A program made the translations under genes and the position numbers. Positions 33,115-48,399 of a stretch of DNA of 64,000 nt are shown here, in pieces. Source of the DNA: a bacterium (GTDB taxonomy: Bacteria > Patescibacteriota > Microgenomatia > JAMCZE01); the NCBI GenBank assembly GCA_021836035.1, contig JAKBJL010000004.1, forward strand, positions 67,841 to 131,840, in the 5' to 3' direction. The notes beneath the pieces were generated by a model. It was not told the DNA's origin. It saw only the letters and a program-made list of their open reading frames with translations, and made no database searches. How positions within the stretch are numbered: the stretch's first letter is position 1; every line of letters begins with the position of its first letter.

Positions 33115-33118
33115 CCTG

Positions 33119-33201
33119 TGCTCTCGCCGGGACTTGAACCCGGACGCCCTTACGGGCATAGCTCCTCAAGCTATCGCGTATGCCAATTCCGCCACGAGAG
33201 C
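33119..33201 (-). tRNA. tRNA-Leu (anticodon GAG) with a long variable arm.
   Basis: Reverse complement GCTCTCGTGGCGGAATTGGCATACGCGATAGCTTGAGGAGCTATGCCCGTAAGGGCGTCCGGGTTCAAGTCCCGGCGAGAGCA. Confidence 0.85.
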
Positions 33202-33403
33202 ATTCCTACTCATTTCTCGCTCAATGCTACAGCCCATTGGTTATGAATACATTTTGGTGGACTTGGAGCGACTAATGTTGAACTGCTCCAAGAACTAGCT
33301 GATTCGATAACAGCTTACTGGGATTGTAACACTTTCGATCCTAAGATTCTCACCGATAGCTACGCCGGCACAGTGGGTCGACAGCTATTGTATAATCAAC
33401 TTT

Positions 33404-33685
33404 ATGAGTATTAGCCCGCAGCCGTCACCAGCAAATAATCAACCTGTACAGGCTCCAATCAACGCAACACCTGCATCAAGCGTACCCAGCAACCCTCCGG
33501 TTTCATGTAACGCTGCCACCGGCGAACCAATTGTTGAGATGACGAATGTCCTTCATTCAATCGACCTTAAGAGTCCAGACGCAAAGCTTAATGCTACGAG
33601 TATTGTCGGAGCGGACGGCAAACGAATCAAGCTTAATCAAGACCTCACAAACGCCAACGACTTCGAGAAAACTATTAAGAAGTAG
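33404..33685 (+). CDS. Hypothetical Pro/Ser-rich small protein.
   Basis: 93-aa ORF inside the element. Confidence 0.3.
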   Translation: MSISPQPSPANNQPVQAPINATPASSVPSNPPVSCNAATGEPIVEMTNVLHSIDLKSPDAKLNATSIVGADGKRIKLNQDLTNANDFEKTIKK

Positions 33686-33764
33686 ATCATTGAACTTCTA
33701 GCTACAATCACTCCTGCGTAAAGTTTGACAAACTTCAGTTAAAATAGATTTAGGAGGTCAAACT

Positions 33765-34163
33765 ATGGCAGACGAAACTAACGAAACAAGTCTTCTCAAC
33801 GAACTCAACGACTCAAAGTCGCCAGAGCTGGTCAATCTAGTTACCGGTGATCCTGAAGTACCGATCTTTTTTGCTAAGTGGCTTGAAAGCGGTTGTAACG
33901 CCACCGCTGCTTATAAAGCACTTCACCCAAATGTCGCTGATGCTTCGGCCAGAGTGTTGGGCTGCAAGAAATTAACATTGATTAACAAACCGGCAATTCT
34001 GGCTGCCTATGGGCTTGAGTTTGACACTTTCTTCGACCAGCTTAAGAGTGGTTTGCAAGCAGAGAAGTTTAATGAGTTCTCCGGCGAGAAAGTTGCCGAC
34101 CACAAGATCCGACTTGAATACCTCCGGCTGCTCGGTAGACTTCTTGGCATTATTCAGGAGTAA
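33765..34163 (+). CDS. Phage terminase small subunit-like HTH protein.
   Basis: FFAKWLESGCNATAAYKALHPNVADASARVLGCKKL resembles the Terminase_2 N-terminal HTH (FxxEYLxxGxNATxAYxxAGY....A...ASRLL). Confidence 0.45.
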   Translation: MADETNETSLLNELNDSKSPELVNLVTGDPEVPIFFAKWLESGCNATAAYKALHPNVADASARVLGCKKLTLINKPAILAAYGLEFDTFFDQLKSGLQAEKFNEFSGEKVADHKIRLEYLRLLGRLLGIIQE

Positions 34164-34216
34164 ATCACACCCAAAGTTTCTAATATATTAGAGTCTTTGA
34201 TATAATCGCCTCATTA

Positions 34217-34310
34217 AAGGTTGATACGGCGGGCCAACCCAAGTAAGATAATGCTCAAACCGTCCGTTGGCCGTATCCTCGGACGGTTTCGATTGGAGGT
34301 GAATTGATTT
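34217..34310 (+). promoter_or_regulatory. Promoter TTGATA-N17-TAAGATAAT plus a 5'-UTR hairpin (AAACCGTCC...GGACGGTTT) and a GGAGG RBS for the gene at 34311.
   Basis: The same promoter-hairpin-RBS arrangement recurs at 37152..37239. Confidence 0.4.
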
Positions 34311-34601
34311 ATGGCAGCAACTCAAGAACAAGAAAAAGGCAAAGAAAAAGGCGGTACCGAAGTTGGTACAGTCTACCAAGCCACTTTAGGGCATTGGCAC
34401 ATGGGTGTGTGGACAACGGCAGAGGAGGCTGAAGATGAAATCAAGGCTTTCAAACCAGACGCTACACCCTTTCAAGGTCTGCCAACGAATATCGGTGAAG
34501 TGCCTGAAGGGCAATACTACATTCAACCTCGGACACTTTTTACAAAAGACCAAGCCAGAGCAGGAGAGCTAAAAGGCAAATTGGGTAAAACAGGTAAATA
34601 G
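34311..34601 (+). CDS. Hypothetical small protein.
   Basis: 96-aa ORF with a strong RBS. Confidence 0.4.
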   Translation: MAATQEQEKGKEKGGTEVGTVYQATLGHWHMGVWTTAEEAEDEIKAFKPDATPFQGLPTNIGEVPEGQYYIQPRTLFTKDQARAGELKGKLGKTGK

Positions 34602-34673
34602 GCAATTCTTGCGCAAGGATTGTTGAAGTGGCAGGGACAACACCCTGCCATTTTTGTGGTCTATAATGGATCA

Positions 34674-36150
34674 ATGGATACGGCCGAGAAACTTGACATT
34701 ACGAAACTTCGGTATGTTTTGTATGCCCGCAAGTCCACCGACGACCCTAAGAAGCAGGTGCGCTCCATTGAAGACCAGATAGCCGAATGTCGACTGTTCG
34801 CTGCTCGTAATGTGCTCACAATAGTCGGCGATCCGATAATCGAGAAGAAGTCGGCCAAAATACCCGACCAGCGTCCTGCCTTCAAGCAAATCCTTGATGA
34901 CATCCGAGATGGTAAGTATGACGGTATCCTGTCATGGCACCCTGACCGGTTGGCAAGAAACATGAAGGAGGCCGGCGTGATAATAGAAATGCTTGATGAG
35001 GGCGTCATAAAAGACTTAAAGTTCGCTACCCATTACTTCTCAAACGACCCAAGTGGCAAGCTCCTACTTGGCATCCTGTTCACACTATCAAAACATTACT
35101 CTGACAAGCTTTCGGTCGATGCCACCCGTGGGACTAGGAGCAGACTTGCAGAAGGCAAGACGGCCACGCCGAAATACGGATACATTAACGAAGAAGGCAT
35201 TTACAGGCCAGACCCTGAAAACTTCGATTTGATGTGCCAGGCATGGATGATGAGGCGAGACGGTGTCTCGATTGAGGACATCTGCAAATTTCTTAATGAA
35301 AAAGGCTTCTACCGAATGGTCAAGTCCTCCGGCAAGAAACTCTTTGCGACTAAACAGAAACTCAGCGATATATTTCGTGATCCGTTTTACTACGGACTAT
35401 TAATACAGGCTAGTCAATCGGTCGACCTCCGGCAAATGTATAACTTTCAACCGGCTGTCAGTGAAGAAGACTACAACCTGGTACACAACTCACATATCGA
35501 AGATTTAAGCCAGGTAAGGCCCACGGTACCGCCCCCTACCCACTCCGGATCATGGTCTTCTGCTCTTTTTGCAATCGCTCAATGCGAGTCGGCCCATCAA
35601 GAAGCAGTAAGGGTAAACAGTACCTGTACTTCAGGTGCGACAACGAAGAATGTGTCCGCCAGAAACGAAGTATCCGGTCAAAGGTCATCTTTGACTTCGT
35701 GTACGAGTTCCTAACCGGTGGCTCAACTTTACGGAGAAGGAGTACCACAACTACTATGACAAGCTTGTTGAGCTTTCAGACGTTAAACGGGAGACACTCA
35801 AGATCGAACTTCACAGCAAACAGGCAGCACTAAATAGAATCAAAACAGAAATCAATGAGCTGTCAAACGGACTCTTGAAAGCTGGGGTTAGTACCATAGT
35901 CAAAGAAGAAGGTGAGGCAAGTATCGCAAGGCTAGAGCCACAACAGTTTGAGTTACAAGAAGAAATTAACCAAATCAAGGCTAAACTCCCTGATCCTGAC
36001 AAGACCAAATTAAGCTTAGAACAATTCTTGAACCCGTCAATGAACGCAGCACCAAGGCTCAAAGCCGGTAACGCCATCGCCAAAGACGCAATTTGTCGTT
36101 TAGTGTTCTTGAACTTAACAGTTAATGAGGAGAATGTATTGTCCTATTAA
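34674..36150 (+). pseudogene. Large serine recombinase copy 1, disrupted by at least two frameshifts.
   Basis: Resolvase catalytic domain YARKSTDD...QIAEC...ILSWHPDRLARN is intact up to ~35513. The zinc-ribbon segment (CSFCNRSMRVG...YLYFRCDNEEC) continues in ORF 35552..35833 and the coiled-coil C-terminus in ORF 35875..36150, each in a different frame. All segments align colinearly with copy 2. Confidence 0.7.
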
Positions 36151-36301
36151 CTCAAGGAGCCATTCGCTACCTTGCTAAAACAACGCCAAATCCTATCTAG
36201 TGGGCGGTTTGAAAAACCGCTTGAACTGGTTAATTATATCATTGCCAACCTGGACCTGCTGAATGAAACTAAGGACAAGTTGGACGATTGCTTAGCCCCA
36301 A

Positions 36302-36619
36302 GTGAGCCAGCCGGTAGACAAATCGAAAATTTATTGCTATAACACGCTTGTCACAACCAAAATCAATATGGCTGATAATTTGACTGACCTGGTTGATCTT
36401 CTGCTGAAGAATCAGCGCACGATAACAACTACTTCTGGTGAGAATGGACGCGGTGATTCAGACAGCGGATACAATCTTTCTGACGGACAAGGTGTGACCG
36501 CGGGCGGCGTTATTGTTGACCTTCGGCCTGATATTGCCGGTGAGCTGGATAATATATACTCGTCCACTATTAAACTATCTGGTTATCCTCTTACTTTAAC
36601 CACTTCTGCTTCTATCTAA
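36302..36619 (+). CDS. Hypothetical protein.
   Basis: 105-aa ORF. Confidence 0.3.
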   Translation: MSQPVDKSKIYCYNTLVTTKINMADNLTDLVDLLLKNQRTITTTSGENGRGDSDSGYNLSDGQGVTAGGVIVDLRPDIAGELDNIYSSTIKLSGYPLTLTTSASI

Positions 36620-37151
36620 AATTATCCGAAACCATTAACTTATAGTAACCAATCCACGCTCGAAGTTGTTTTTTGTTGGTTCAGCTACGCTCGAAAGTAC
36701 GTCGCTTAATAAACGATTTGCGACGTGGACCGTCAAACTGGGCTGATTCTTAATTGTCACGCCGGCGTTACAATTGCACATATCCGTGGCTTTACCTGGT
36801 AGCTTGTGGTGTCACCGCGTCAAGTGAAGCGAGATAATCCCGGTAATCAAATGCTTGACGATTCTTACTCATATTTGCGAGATAATAAATTTTGATAATT
36901 CGTGCTTAAAAACGAATTGAGAAGTAATAGGATATTACTACTTTACTATCAGTTTTATACATTAAAACCTAAGGCAATTCTTCTTTATGCAGCTTTTTCT
37001 TTAAAAATTGACGCCCGGTTGAGAAATCTACTTGGGGTTGGCTGCTGGCTTACCGACCGCAGTTTTTATGCGGCAAAAAATTAGACCAAAAGTCGCGGTG
37101 TACACAATTTGCTTTTAGGGGGTACTAGCGATAAAATCTGACTATCATAAG

Positions 37152-37239
37152 TTGATATGGCCAACCTGGGTTTGCTAAGATAATCTCAAACCGTCCCGCG
37201 GCCATATCGCTGGGCGGTTTTTGTTTGGGGGTGAGAATT
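37152..37239 (+). promoter_or_regulatory. Second copy of the TTGATA-N18-TAAGATAAT promoter with its 5'-UTR hairpin, upstream of the gene at 37240.
   Basis: Paralogous to 34217..34310. The shared block is gttgata.ggc..ccaacc..taagataat.ctcaaaccgtcc. Confidence 0.4.
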
Positions 37240-37557
37240 ATGGCAGAAAAAATGAGAGTATTTAAGACTGCAGTGCAAGACGTTCTCAATTCAGAAGACG
37301 CTGTACGAGCAGCTATTGAATCTGGGTTACCCCCAGAGGCTTTTGAATCCTTTTCAACGGTTGCTGAATCAACAATCGCTTCTTTCTGTAAGGGGTGTGA
37401 TAATTCAGGTGGCGAATCTAAACCTTGTAAGCTCGTTGGACCGGACGATCAGGCAAGATATGCGATTAGAAATTGGTGTGGTTATGCTGCGGTAAGTGGC
37501 GAGAGAGGTGAAATGACCGCCAAAGGATTTAATCGCTGGGACGCAAAGAAAAGTTAA
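37240..37557 (+). CDS. Hypothetical Cys-containing small protein. The ORF track begins at an upstream TTG.
   Basis: ATG preceded by GGGGGTGAG, CxxC..C pattern, 105 aa. Confidence 0.4.
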   Translation: MAEKMRVFKTAVQDVLNSEDAVRAAIESGLPPEAFESFSTVAESTIASFCKGCDNSGGESKPCKLVGPDDQARYAIRNWCGYAAVSGERGEMTAKGFNRWDAKKS

Positions 37558-37582
37558 TAGTCTTTATAAAAAAGAGTATAAG

Positions 37583-37613
37583 TTGGCGGGTTTAATCAAC
37601 CGCCAATTTTGTT
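37583..37613 (+). terminator. Intrinsic terminator.
   Basis: TTGGCGG-gtttaatcaa-CCGCCAA hairpin followed by TTTTGTT. Confidence 0.5.
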
Positions 37614-37728
37614 GGTCGAGAATAGCCCGTCGGCACACTAAAATGGCTAAAGTAAGCTATCGATATGGCCAACAGCACTCTTTCACCGCAAGACTTGGCT
37701 AAACCTCTTCAGAGTATTCGGTCTTAGC

Positions 37729-39334
37729 CCGAAGAAAAAGATCCCTCGCAATATCGCTATGTCTTTTACGTTCGAAAATCGACCGACGAAGACGATAACC
37801 AAGTTCGATCATTACCGGATCAGATTGTTGAATGTCAAAAGTTTGCCGAGGATAATGGGATAAATTACGACCGGGACAATATAATCCGAGAATCCTGCTC
37901 GGCAAAAGATAGCGGTATTCGTCCTCTTTTTAACAAAATGCTTGAGGATATCCGCCGAGGTAAATACGACGGTATCTTAGCTTGGCACCCGGACAGATTG
38001 GCTCGAAATATGAAAGGGGGCGGCGAGATAATCGATCTGCTGGACAAAGAGATTATCAAAGACCTCAAATTTAAGAGCTTTACTTTTACCAACGATCCTT
38101 CGGGTAAAATGCTGCTTGGGATACCTTCGTTTTGTCCAAAGAGTATTCTGACGCCCTTAGTGAGAATGTAAAGCGGGGTATCCGACGGTCACTTGAAGAA
38201 GGTAAATACGTTGGTAAGAGAAAACACGGCTATTACAAGGATAAAAATCAAATGCTTCGTCCGGATAACGCCGCTAGCTCACCCAACTTTGAATTATTGA
38301 CCAAAGCTTGGGCAATGAGACTTGAAAACAAAACCCTAGTCGAAATTGCCAATTATCTGAACGCAAATGGTTATTCGGTGCCTTTGGACAATATTGGCCG
38401 CAAGCACGAACTATTCAAAATGACGCTAAAAATCTTGTCAGAGATATTTCGGGACCCGCTGTATGCCGGGGTGCTAGTTTACGGCGAAGAGAACAAGCCG
38501 GTGGCTTTACCAGACGCTTATGACTTTATCCGTATGATTTCGGTTGACGATTTCTTACGGGTTAACCATATCGACAATCTAACCCAGATCGTCAGGCAAC
38601 GTTTCAGGGGTGCTCAACCGGGATCGAGAAAGGCAGAACTTATGAATGGATTAGTGCTTTGTCCGAAATGTGGCGAGGATATGGTAGCCGGGATTACACC
38701 TAAAAAGACTGGCCTGCGGACAATAAATTACTACTATTTCAGGTGCGATACCCCCGATTGCGCTAGACGTGGCAAGTCCGTACGAGCCAAGATCCTGCTT
38801 GATTTTATTTACGATTTTCTTGAAAACCACAAACCGAAGTCTAAAGAAGCTTATGATCGGTATCTGACTGAAATGGATAAGGTGATTAAAGAAAAAGCCA
38901 CTGCCCTCGAGAGCCACAAGAGGCGGTTACTGCTTGATAAATCAGCTTTTGACAAGAAGATTGAACGGTATAAAAACTTTCTTACCAGTCAAAAAGACTT
39001 AGACCAGACCACCAAAAAATCATTTCTGGATAGTCTTGAAAGTGCTACAGCAGCTCGTGGGCAGGTTGTCGAGTCGTTGGACGAGATAAATACTGCGATT
39101 GCTAACCAAAACCAGTCAGTTTTGTCTTATCAGAAGTTTATTGAACTATTTGACAATCTGCCTGTTATCTTGCGCCAAACCAAGGTTTTGAAAGAGAAAG
39201 ACGACATAATCAGAAAAATCTTCTTGAACCTCACTTCTGACGAGAAGAAAGTATTGTCCTATCAATTAAATCCACCTTTCGACACCTTGCTCGAAGAAGG
39301 TAGTTTTTCGAATGGTGGGCTGAAGAGGACTTGA
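37729..39334 (+). pseudogene. Large serine recombinase copy 2. It has no start codon upstream of the catalytic region and a frameshift near 38120, and its 3' end overlaps tRNA-Leu(CAG).
   Basis: An in-frame TAG is followed directly by PEEKDPSQYRYVFYVRKSTDED with no start codon between. The frame switches between ORF 37938..38171 and ORF 38132..39334 at ...SGKMLLGIPS / FVLSKEYSDALS. The zinc ribbon CPKCGEDM...YFRCDTPDC is present. Confidence 0.65.
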
Positions 39335-39399
39335 ACCTCCACCGGATTGCTCCGATACGCTCCTGAAGCGTACGCGTATACCAATTCCGCCATCAGCCC
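39313..39399 (-). tRNA. tRNA-Leu (anticodon CAG) with encoded CCA.
   Basis: Reverse complement GGGCTGATGGCGGAATTGGTATACGCGTACGCTTCAGGAGCGTATCGGAGCAATCCGGTGGAGGTTCAAGTCCTCTTCAGCCCACCA. Confidence 0.85.
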
Positions 39400-39738: not shown

Positions 39739-39809
39739 TTGCCCGGTCGTCTAACGGTAGGACAAAGGACTTTGGATCCTTGAATCATGGTTCGAATCCA
39801 TGCTGGGCA
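39739..39809 (+). tRNA. tRNA-Gln (anticodon TTG).
   Basis: TGCCCGGTCGTCTAACGGTAGGACAAAGGACTTTGGATCCTTGAATCATGGTTCGAATCCATGCTGGGCAG. Confidence 0.75.
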
Positions 39810-39918
39810 GCAAATTAGTTTGGCTTCATATTTTCCTCAATGCGGATTTCGAATCGAACCTTTGGATTGTTTTATATAAGTCAGTGGTATGAAGCATAGT
39901 TACATTTACCTTTGGTGG

Positions 39919-40776
39919 TTATTTATAGTCGTTTAGAGCAAAACTAACCCGATACAGTTTTGCCGCAACCTTTTGGTTAATCTGCCGGATGGCATATTCC
40001 AATTTTTTATCCTTCTCCCGGACCACAATCAAAGCTCTAACCTTTTTTCCTTTCGCTAAATTGTCTTCTACCCAAGTGATATACCGGAGCACCTGCCCAA
40101 CAACTTCATCATTCTTCCTTCCTTTCTTAAGTTCTAGGATTACGAAGTTTTTATCCTGATCTGTGGCTAGTATATCAATATAACCCGCATCACCAGCTAA
40201 ATATTGCTAACCAACATTTCCATTTTCATCCTGAAATATCTCCAATTTTTCTCCAAAATCAATTTTTGCCCAATTATCAACAATAAATTCTTCCAGGTAT
40301 TTTTCCAAAGCGAACTCCATTTCTTCCGGCTTAGTAACCGGGCCTTGTTCGCTAACCTGTGCCCCCAATATCGTTAGGAAATCTTTCTCCGAAATTTTGC
40401 TTGAACCACCCTGAGCTGGTCGCCATTCTAAATTTGCAAACTCCTTTCTCGGTTTAGGTTCTGAAAAGACCACTACATCTTCCAAATCAATACGTAAGGT
40501 CTCTGGATCGAGGAACCAATCTTTTGACTCCCCGGACTTATCTTCGTAAGGAGTGGATTTAAGAGTTGCCGCTCCCACAAACACCTGGTTGTCTGGTCCT
40601 GTTAAATAAAATACCACCTTATCCCCAGGTTGAATCGCTTTTCTGTTTGGGGTATTAAAACCAAATCCCCATACAGATTTACCCCGGACCAGGAAATCGA
40701 AAACTTCTTGAGCGATTCTTTGTTTACCGTATTTTGATTGGTCGGCTACCTGAAAAACGTAATAGTTCATAATCAC
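39919..40776 (-). pseudogene. EVE/PUA-like domain fused to a PD-(D/E)xK (NucS/DUF91-like) nuclease, interrupted by an in-frame TAG at plus 40207..40209. Candidate modification-dependent (type IV-like) restriction enzyme.
   Basis: N-terminal EVE-like features YYVFQV....VWGFGFN....GDKVVFY. After the TAG the same frame continues QYLAGDAGYIDILATDQDKNFVILELKKGRKNDEVVGQVLRYITWV (D..D/ELK nuclease core), ending with a TAA at 39919. Confidence 0.6.
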
Positions 40777-40832
40777 TTGTGCTCACATAGATTATAATCC
40801 AGTTTTACTTAATATGTTATATAATTGAAAGT

Positions 40833-46909: not shown

Positions 46910-47203
46910 TTATTCTTTTATTTCTGGGCCGGAAGAATGATCTTCACCGGGATCTAGATAGGGAAAGTTAAAATTAGCTACCGGGTGATTAGCTTTGCGG
47001 CTAGCGTCAATAATTTTGCAAATAAACGGCGAATCCATACTGTATGAACCGCCATGAAGAACAACATCTATAATTTCTGCCTGCTTATTAAAAAAGAATT
47101 TAAAGTCTGACACCCGCAATAATCTTACTATAAATAAGAGTAATGAAGTCACGTCGCTCTTATACTTACCTTTTGTGCTAAAATAATGCGTATTATAGGA
47201 CAT
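46910..47203 (-). CDS. Hypothetical ORF, possibly a gene fragment.
   Basis: 97-aa ORF next to the IS remnant. No motif. Confidence 0.2.
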   Translation of the reverse strand: MSYNTHYFSTKGKYKSDVTSLLLFIVRLLRVSDFKFFFNKQAEIIDVVLHGGSYSMDSPFICKIIDASRKANHPVANFNFPYLDPGEDHSSGPEIKE

Positions 47204-48398
47204 GAAAAGGTTCGAGCAGCAACCAGTTCAAAACATACCGGAAAAACCCGGCAGAATCCATGTTCGCCGAGAGCAGAGTAATTTTGAACAAACTTCAAGA
47301 TATCACTGGGCGGGGTTGGCACAAAATCCAGGAGCGATTGAAAGAGACATTGAAGAGAAAGCGAGATCAATTCTTGAAAATCAAGGACGGATATCGCTAA
47401 GGTTGTTAAATGAAAACGAACCCGGATTAGCCTTTGCCGTTAAGAAGTACTACCCCGGAGGTTTAAGAAAACTAAAGGAAACTGTTGAAGCTGGTAACAA
47501 CCAGATAGAAGCTCCATTAAATGTCATCTTCAACGAAGCGGGTCTGCCCATTAGCAAAAGCGGAAATATTTGGTGGTCGATTTTAGCTAAGGATCAAGAA
47601 AAAGTGACAAGAGTCATTGAAACCGAAGCAAGGAAAATGCTAACTAGCGGTATTAAATTAACCCAGTCTGGAATTACAAAAGCGGGGCAGAGCGGGTTCA
47701 TAGCGGCTATATATCATTACTACCCAGGCGGACTACAAGCCTTAAAAAGGAAATTTGGACAAGAACTTTCCCAACACGAACACGGATATTGGACACCAGA
47801 GAAAATCAAAGACGAAAGCCTAAGGGTACTGGCCACTCATGGTAACTTAACCCAGGGATTACTCACATCTTTAAAGAGAAACGATTTAAGCATTGCTATC
47901 GCCCGAAAGTACCCCGGTGGATTAACACAATTAAAAAGAGACCTGGGCTTGGTAGAATCCACAAAAGAAGACGGCTATTGGAAAAACATTGATACTATTC
48001 GCAGCGAAGCAAAAATTTTCTTCCAAGAAACCGGAAAATTAGATACGGAATCTTTATATTCCGCAGGAAAAAGTAGTTTGGCTAGCGCCATTGTCAAACG
48101 CTATCCCGGCAGTTTTTATCGATTGCGTAAAGACCTTGGTTTAAAAGGCGGGAGAAAGCCCACTGGATTTTGGAGCAGCCAAGAGGGGCTGGATCTCATG
48201 CGGGTCGAAGCGCAAAACTTATTAAAGCAAGAGGGGCATATTACCGTCGAATTATTTAATGAGAGAAGGAAAAGTATGATTGGGTACGCCATCAGGCATT
48301 ACTACCCTGGTGGGATAAAACAACTTAAAGAAGAGTTAGGACATATAAACACTACGAACGAGGCCAATATCCAGATAGAGGCTTTATTAAAAGATTAA
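47202..48398 (+). CDS. Tandem-repeat protein A (398 aa) with five ~62-aa GYWT/YPGG repeats and a C-terminal EANIQIEALLKD tail.
   Basis: Repeats are delimited by YPGG: VKKYYPGGLRKLK, IYHYYPGGLQALK, IARKYPGGLTQLK, VKRYPGSFYRLR, IRHYYPGGIKQLK. Confidence 0.7.
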   Translation: MKRFEQQPVQNIPEKPGRIHVRREQSNFEQTSRYHWAGLAQNPGAIERDIEEKARSILENQGRISLRLLNENEPGLAFAVKKYYPGGLRKLKETVEAGNNQIEAPLNVIFNEAGLPISKSGNIWWSILAKDQEKVTRVIETEARKMLTSGIKLTQSGITKAGQSGFIAAIYHYYPGGLQALKRKFGQELSQHEHGYWTPEKIKDESLRVLATHGNLTQGLLTSLKRNDLSIAIARKYPGGLTQLKRDLGLVESTKEDGYWKNIDTIRSEAKIFFQETGKLDTESLYSAGKSSLASAIVKRYPGSFYRLRKDLGLKGGRKPTGFWSSQEGLDLMRVEAQNLLKQEGHITVELFNERRKSMIGYAIRHYYPGGIKQLKEELGHINTTNEANIQIEALLKD

Positions 48399-48399
48399 T

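Follow-up and report, generated by a model that had tools for sequence, protein, structure and literature searches.

The window analysed here, a 64-kb stretch of DNA, carries on its minus strand, at 39919-40776, a frame of 286 codons with a single internal stop and a terminal TAA. Around the interruption the translation reads ...IFQDENGNVG-stop-QYLAGDAGYIDILATDQDKNFVILELKKGRKNDEVVGQVLRYITWV...NDYK-stop, the internal stop being a TAG at codon 188 counted from the ATG. A preliminary description of the same DNA had reported one in-frame TAG at plus coordinates 40207-40209 and a frame continuing to NDYK and a stop; our translation reproduced both, as well as the motifs YYVFQV, VWGFGFN and GDKVVFY, with the amendment that the gene lies on the minus strand. 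The 189-aa product ending in IFQDENGNVG that it had quoted is present in the list of open reading frames (40207-40776, with a GTG start at 40776), but its start had to be moved: since all homologues begin MNYY and the truncated product found in the databases is 187 aa long, the ATG at 40770 is, by this comparison, almost certainly the true start. The sole ORF listed behind the stop is a 57-aa piece starting from a GTG at 40092. Nonetheless, the 95 codons following the stop cannot be taken for a chance frame, because 74-80% of the residues they encode are shared with the C-termini of P0001-P0004, the nearest intact homologues. The features of the locus are collected in Table 1; promoter-like sites of the kind listed there are no more numerous in the sequence than in shuffled controls.

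Table 1. Features of the interrupted EVE-nuclease gene and its immediate surroundings (coordinates of the window)
Feature	Position	Strand	Remarks
Whole EVE-nuclease frame, a pseudogene	39919..40770	-	283 sense codons, 1 internal TAG; terminal TAA at 39919-39921
Truncated translated ORF, 187 aa	40207..40770	-	EVE, linker, and first helix and hairpin of the nuclease fold; equals database protein P0055
In-frame TAG, codon 188	40207..40209	-	Column in intact homologues: K, Q, E, R or S
Promoter-like site, ATAACA-18 nt-TATAAT	40791..40820	-	10/12 matches; ~20 nt upstream of the ATG; consensus match only
Pfam EVE PF01878 match	40366..40656	-	Residues 39-135 from the ATG; fold of the homologue model agrees
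NucS_C/YhcG_C-type PD-(D/E)xK nuclease module	39922..40329	-	About residues 148-283, split by the TAG
Catalytic core	40081..40176	-	Wholly behind the stop; aligned to NucS/EndoMS GxxD...LELK...QxxxY
D199	40174-40176	-	Catalytic residue
E213	40132-40134	-	Catalytic residue
K215	40126-40128	-	Catalytic residue, ExK
Q226	40093-40095	-	Catalytic residue, QxxxY
Y230	40081-40083	-	Catalytic residue, QxxxY
tRNA-Gln(UUG)	39740..39811	+	108 bp beyond the 3' end of the gene; context only, no suppressor
tRNA-Leu(CAG)	39313..39399	-	3' end overlaps the end of a frameshifted serine-recombinase gene; border of decayed integrated elements

On one side the gene is bordered by tRNA-Gln and tRNA-Leu(CAG), followed by two tandem remnants of small integrated elements, which agrees with its earlier placement beside an integrated element and a tRNA cluster. 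On the other side lie RidA, a 248-aa protein of no known function, an aminotransferase and a NUDIX gene; with RidA, the aminotransferase and the tRNAs for neighbours, the window copy stands outside any defence island. The two remnants (33118-39399) occupy the interval between tRNA-Leu(GAG), at 33118-33201, and tRNA-Leu(CAG), and diverged direct repeats separate them; in both, the large serine recombinase is frameshifted, the pieces lying at 34620-35714, 35552-35833 and 35875-36150 in one and at 37938-38171 and 38132-39334 in the other. The window holds 12 tRNA genes altogether, and its left part includes dnaE, lexA, uvrB, uvrA and uvrC; a small, reduced genome is in keeping with this tRNA and gene content and with homologues of the Saccharimonadales type.

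The N-terminal part of the protein was recognized by the Pfam EVE profile (PF01878) with 35.9 bits against a cut-off of 23 (E value 8.9e-9, residues 41-137 of the 189-aa ORF), while the half behind the stop exceeded the curated thresholds of both NucS_C (30.1 vs 24) and YhcG_C (34.6 vs 32.5); the assignments made in the preliminary description, EVE followed by a NucS-type nuclease, are thus borne out by profile searches. An alignment to the PADLOC profile PDC-S02 (E value 3.9e-36, residues 151-282) crosses the stop, which places the TAG within the nuclease module and not between the domains; this match covers only positions 175-306 of the 308 in the profile, corresponding to the nuclease module, the N-domain being different. 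Comparisons with PDB sequences using phmmer and the family profile aligned GYIDIL...ELKKGR...GQVLRY with the catalytic core of NucS (2vld) and EndoMS (5gke). As D199, E213, K215, Q226 and Y230 are all encoded behind the TAG, the catalytic residues are left untranslated. The NucS equivalog of NCBIfam (NF003270) scored 38.7 bits, its match restricted to residues 196-252, a catalytic core of ~57 residues; because its cut-off of 216 is missed by such a wide margin, the C-terminal half is best regarded as a predicted NucS-like nuclease domain and not as a NucS orthologue.

An AlphaFold (AF2) model was obtained for P0001, the closest intact homologue (79% identical), using an 81-sequence alignment. 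The model, with a mean pLDDT of 85.6, comprises a beta-rich N-domain (residues 1-135), a disordered linker (138-150) and an alpha/beta C-domain, and Foldseek matched it to three groups of PDB structures, all with a probability of about 1: EndoMS/NucS, EVE proteins and YTH domains. The top match was NucS/EndoMS (2vld, 5gke), whereas the EVE structures 1wmm, 5j3e (THYN1 with 5mC DNA), 2eve and 2ar1 were matched with probability 1.0 and TM(target) values of 0.55-0.61. The model therefore supports a PUA-like reader joined to a NucS-like nuclease, again in keeping with both domain calls made earlier. YTH domains scored much as the EVE structures did; Foldseek on this model does not separate EVE-like (5mC/5hmC) from YTH-like (6mA) readers, so the fold would not indicate which modification is read. 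In the modelled nuclease fold the TAG position falls after the helix 148-165 and ahead of the catalytic strands.

A search of 5.8 billion proteins retrieved 366 homologues, and among the best 120 of them nearly all are ~281-289 aa long, contain both Pfam domains and share 57-80% identity with the window copy, the best full-length match being only 80% identical. Intact orthologues, which the preliminary description had left to be sought, number more than 100 in Patescibacteria, with a length of ~284 aa and both domains present; in these, reader and nuclease form one uninterrupted polypeptide, a continuity that the window copy loses at codon 188. In a distribution scan comprising one genome per species, the full-length matches with both domains came mostly from MAGs labelled Saccharibacteria, Gottesman-, Kaiser-, Harrison- and Uhrbacteria, Minisyncoccota or Patescibacteria, and four bore the labels Gammaproteobacteria or Pseudomonadales. 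These four (L010-L012 and L022) are full-length members with 59-68% identity, labelled 'uncultured Gammaproteobacteria' or 'Pseudomonadales' where the other full-length members carry labels of Patescibacteria groups; these MAGs may have been misassigned taxonomically.

The column corresponding to the TAG is occupied in the alignment of 81 sequences by K (38), Q (34), E (4), R (4) and S (1), and in no case by a stop. Relatives use CAA, CAG, GAA and AGA codons at this position, and TAG is a single substitution away from CAG, AAG or GAG. No intact allele from the same species was found, either by protein search or by a search of JGI metagenome contigs with a degenerate 26-mer around the TAG.

Sequence conservation was then compared on both sides of the stop. 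Of the alignment columns with 90% conservation or more, the window copy matches all 65 ahead of the stop and 39 of the 41 behind it; the two exceptions, V to I and G to A, both occur in intact members, and the frame of the pseudogene contains no second stop and no frameshift. Since the conserved residues behind the stop have been retained, the nonsense mutation appears to have arisen recently compared with the divergence of this lineage from its nearest known relatives, and the recent inactivation proposed in the preliminary description holds on this count. Lineage-specific amino acid changes number 6 in 187 positions of the N-terminal part and 9 in 94 of the C-terminal part (Fisher p about 0.045-0.06), which is at most a weak hint of relaxed selection behind the stop, all of those changes being to residues that intact members also show, with dS saturated in comparisons with the nearest relatives.

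Proteins combining an EVE domain with a PD-(D/E)xK nuclease have been published as a predicted class of type IV restriction enzymes, EVE-PD(D/E)XK, defined by bioinformatics only (Bell, Wolf, Koonin 2020, PMC7641849), so the earlier remark that fusions of PUA-like readers to nucleases are predicted type IV systems has a basis in the literature; the main text of that study does not mention Patescibacteria or Saccharibacteria. The present family shares with this class the EVE modified-base reader and the PD-(D/E)xK domain in one polypeptide, solitary or in restriction-modification (R-M) neighbourhoods, but its nuclease is of the NucS_C/YhcG_C-like kind in particular, and the copy in the window is disrupted. 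VcaM4I and TspA15I (PMC7897488, PMC6765204) also place an N-terminal EVE sensor and a linker ahead of a C-terminal nuclease, which in their case is HNH and not PD-(D/E)xK, sequence similarity being limited to the EVE fold. For VcaM4I (EVE-HNH), experiments have demonstrated flipping of 5mC/5hmC by the EVE domain, whose hydrophobic pocket, formed by P24, W82 and Y130, receives the base (PMC7897488), and by analogy this enzyme would be the best experimental model for the working of the intact family. The N-domain of the family has invariant aromatic residues at W34, F36, F54, Y55 and W116. NucS/EndoMS (2vld, 5gke), whose catalytic core GxxD...(L)ELK...QxxxY aligns with that of the family and which is the top Foldseek match, is a mismatch endonuclease that differs in its N-terminal domain, and its equivalog cut-off was not reached here. 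Finally, the PADLOC candidate defence family PDC-S02 has in common with the family the linker helix and the nuclease module (E value 3.9e-36), although only the C-terminal ~132 of the 308 profile positions match, its N-domains gave no Pfam match to EVE, and it is an unvalidated candidate family; when one PDC-S02 representative with this nuclease module was challenged in E. coli with T4, T5 or T7, no protection was seen.

Taken together, the window copy is in our judgement very probably a recently inactivated single-polypeptide enzyme of the predicted modification-dependent (type IV-like) restriction endonucleases. In intact members the N-terminal EVE (PUA-like) domain would flip a modified base into a pocket, and a flexible linker would join it to a minimal NucS/RecB-like PD-(D/E)xK domain (D...ExK...QxxxY) that would cut the DNA; both the restriction function and the kind of modification targeted we infer. 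In the window genome a point mutation would have converted codon 188, which is Q, K or E in relatives, into TAG, and translation would end after the EVE domain and the first nuclease helix, with the loss of every catalytic residue.

The surroundings of intact and broken relatives bear on whether the family serves in defence or in repair. Across 16 family loci no neighbouring gene is conserved, and the gene is non-syntenic between genomes; nevertheless, R-M genes are adjacent or nearby in six of the 16 (L018, L019, L013, L021, L023 and L011). In three of them (L018, L019, L013) a gene of ~1026 aa encoding an N6-MTase with Type_ISP_C (type IIG/ISP-like, with TRD) lies directly upstream of the intact family member, and in L021 this position is taken by a type I HsdR; an N6_N4 DNA methylase lies directly downstream of the copy in L023, and an Eco57I-type methylase 1.2 kb upstream of the one in L011. 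The intervals concerned are L018:1924-5855, L019:1797-5859, L013:1088-5855 and L021:20-3347, with a gap of 2 bp between the two genes in L018, and such arrangements may be operons or defence islands; the L013 methyltransferase gene itself seems frameshifted. Two further copies are broken, L022:5001-5842 by a frameshift near codon 105 and a TGG to TAG change at the invariant W167, and L023:5001-5839 by a frameshift in a poly-A run at the W167 codon. At least two other lineages, represented by species-level genomes, have broken the family gene independently. An apparent truncation in L019 was discarded as a lesion, being a run of 10 N that marks a scaffold gap.

The nuclease module alone, at 40-55% identity, is met again in many phyla beyond these, among them Planctomycetota, Chloroflexota and Acidobacteriota, where it is fused to N-domains without a Pfam match. 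A linker helix and NucS-like module are joined to at least three other N-domains in L081:4470-5396, L089:1497-2432, L026, L049, L033 and L079; these N-domains, likewise without a Pfam match, are of the types MPRYWVIAP..., MKYYRIILG...GFVGADF... and helical, and two of the fusions are found in Saccharibacteria. Such alternative N-domains may be unannotated sensor domains.

It could be argued that the family is instead a DNA-repair or damage-sensing endonuclease of the NucS/EndoMS kind, and the window copy a lost repair gene, given that the best sequence and fold matches of its nuclease half are NucS/EndoMS, that it is well conserved (57-80% identity) across Saccharimonadales and that several of its copies are found among housekeeping genes. 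We consider this unlikely: the NucS equivalog score stays at 38.7 of the 216 bits needed and reflects the ~57-residue core only, the N-domain is EVE and not that of NucS, the position is non-syntenic with copies often adjoining R-M genes, the nuclease module is fused to several unrelated N-domains across many phyla, and pseudogenisation has happened repeatedly, all of which is typical of accessory defence genes. The shuffled sensor domain, the patchy mobile distribution, the R-M neighbours and the repeated loss point to an accessory defence nuclease more readily than to a repair enzyme.

An inactivated defence nuclease presupposes that the stop is real. P0055, the exact 187-aa truncated product, is encoded on six contigs of differing size from NCBI, ENA and Logan assemblies, which may come from the same or related samples or population; the two contigs whose DNA was read, from ENA and Logan, match the window at 100% identity across 6,564 and 4,483 bases. 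An assembler artefact behind the TAG is unlikely for this reason. The preliminary description had raised the alternative of a sequencing error; an intact gene hidden by such an error, or by one of assembly, agrees with the single base separating the TAG from the CAG, AAG or GAA/GAG-type codons of relatives, but the same product on six contigs of different lengths, the identity of the two that were read and the different assemblers make such an error very unlikely.

A further alternative is that a genuine TAG is read through, by a programmed mechanism, a suppressor tRNA or recoding, yielding a full-length nuclease, perhaps conditionally. Genome-wide recoding of TAG was rejected, as TAG ends 13 of the 45 long ORFs in the window and reading it as a sense codon lengthens the ORFs no more than does the same treatment of TGA. 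TAG terminates lexA, uvrA and a solute-binding-protein gene, and in uvrA and the latter it has the same TAG-C context as the internal stop; the C after the stop, which might otherwise speak for read-through, is thus shared with ordinary terminators. A CUA anticodon is absent from all 12 tRNAs of the window, and no stop is found at this column in the 81 aligned homologues. The undecayed frame behind the stop would be expected under read-through, but a recent mutation explains it equally well, and read-through, which had been left standing alongside sequencing error, now seems highly improbable.

The two halves could also act as separate polypeptides, since stand-alone EVE proteins exist in nature (PMC7641849) and the 187-aa product holds a complete EVE domain; this split gene is scarcely credible, as the first in-frame start after the TAG (GTG 40092) would yield a 57-aa peptide devoid of D199, E213 and K215, and the stop lies inside the nuclease fold, between the helix 148-165 and the catalytic strands. 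Equally far-fetched is a conditional switch, in which a toxic full-length nuclease would be made only under UAG suppression, for instance by a suppressor tRNA from a TAG-recoded phage, so that infection itself would arm the enzyme; the undecayed frame is compatible with it, but nothing speaks positively for it: among the 81 aligned homologues the stop belongs to this strain alone, and genes here commonly end in TAG.

A simple nonsense inactivation is therefore the reading we retain, and the reason for the loss can only be surmised. The suggestion that the gene was inactivated to tolerate an acquired modification system found no backing, as motif scanning and Pfam analysis of 20 window proteins revealed no DNA methyltransferase next to the gene or within the neighbouring element remnants. 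The sole methyltransferase-domain protein in the window, a helicase-methyltransferase of 1273 aa, is encoded 11 kb away; it does not have the appearance of a DNA methyltransferase, resembling small-molecule methyltransferases at best.

This 1273-aa protein combines a DEAD-type helicase domain with one of the class I SAM methyltransferase type and weakly matches PADLOC mad2 (E value 6e-6); its gene belongs to a block of four co-directional genes at 47202-55512 on the plus strand, a region with raised GC and a strong AT skew. The other three products, of 398, 611 and 403 aa, gave no confident Pfam, PADLOC or NCBIfam match, the 611-aa protein having only a sub-threshold match to HAMP_2. The block may be an uncharacterised defence or modification module.

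The locus represents ordinary gene decay of a known predicted kind of enzyme and no new system; it illustrates clearly how an accessory defence gene of a reduced candidate-phyla genome can be silenced by a nonsense mutation, and holds little mechanistic lesson. Its value lies at the level of the family: a well-conserved predicted EVE-NucS-like nuclease is widespread in Patescibacteria, often beside R-M genes, and has been repeatedly pseudogenised, and its nuclease module is common to other unannotated sensor domains in many phyla. One of the intact homologues might reasonably be put forward as a candidate new modification-dependent endonuclease.
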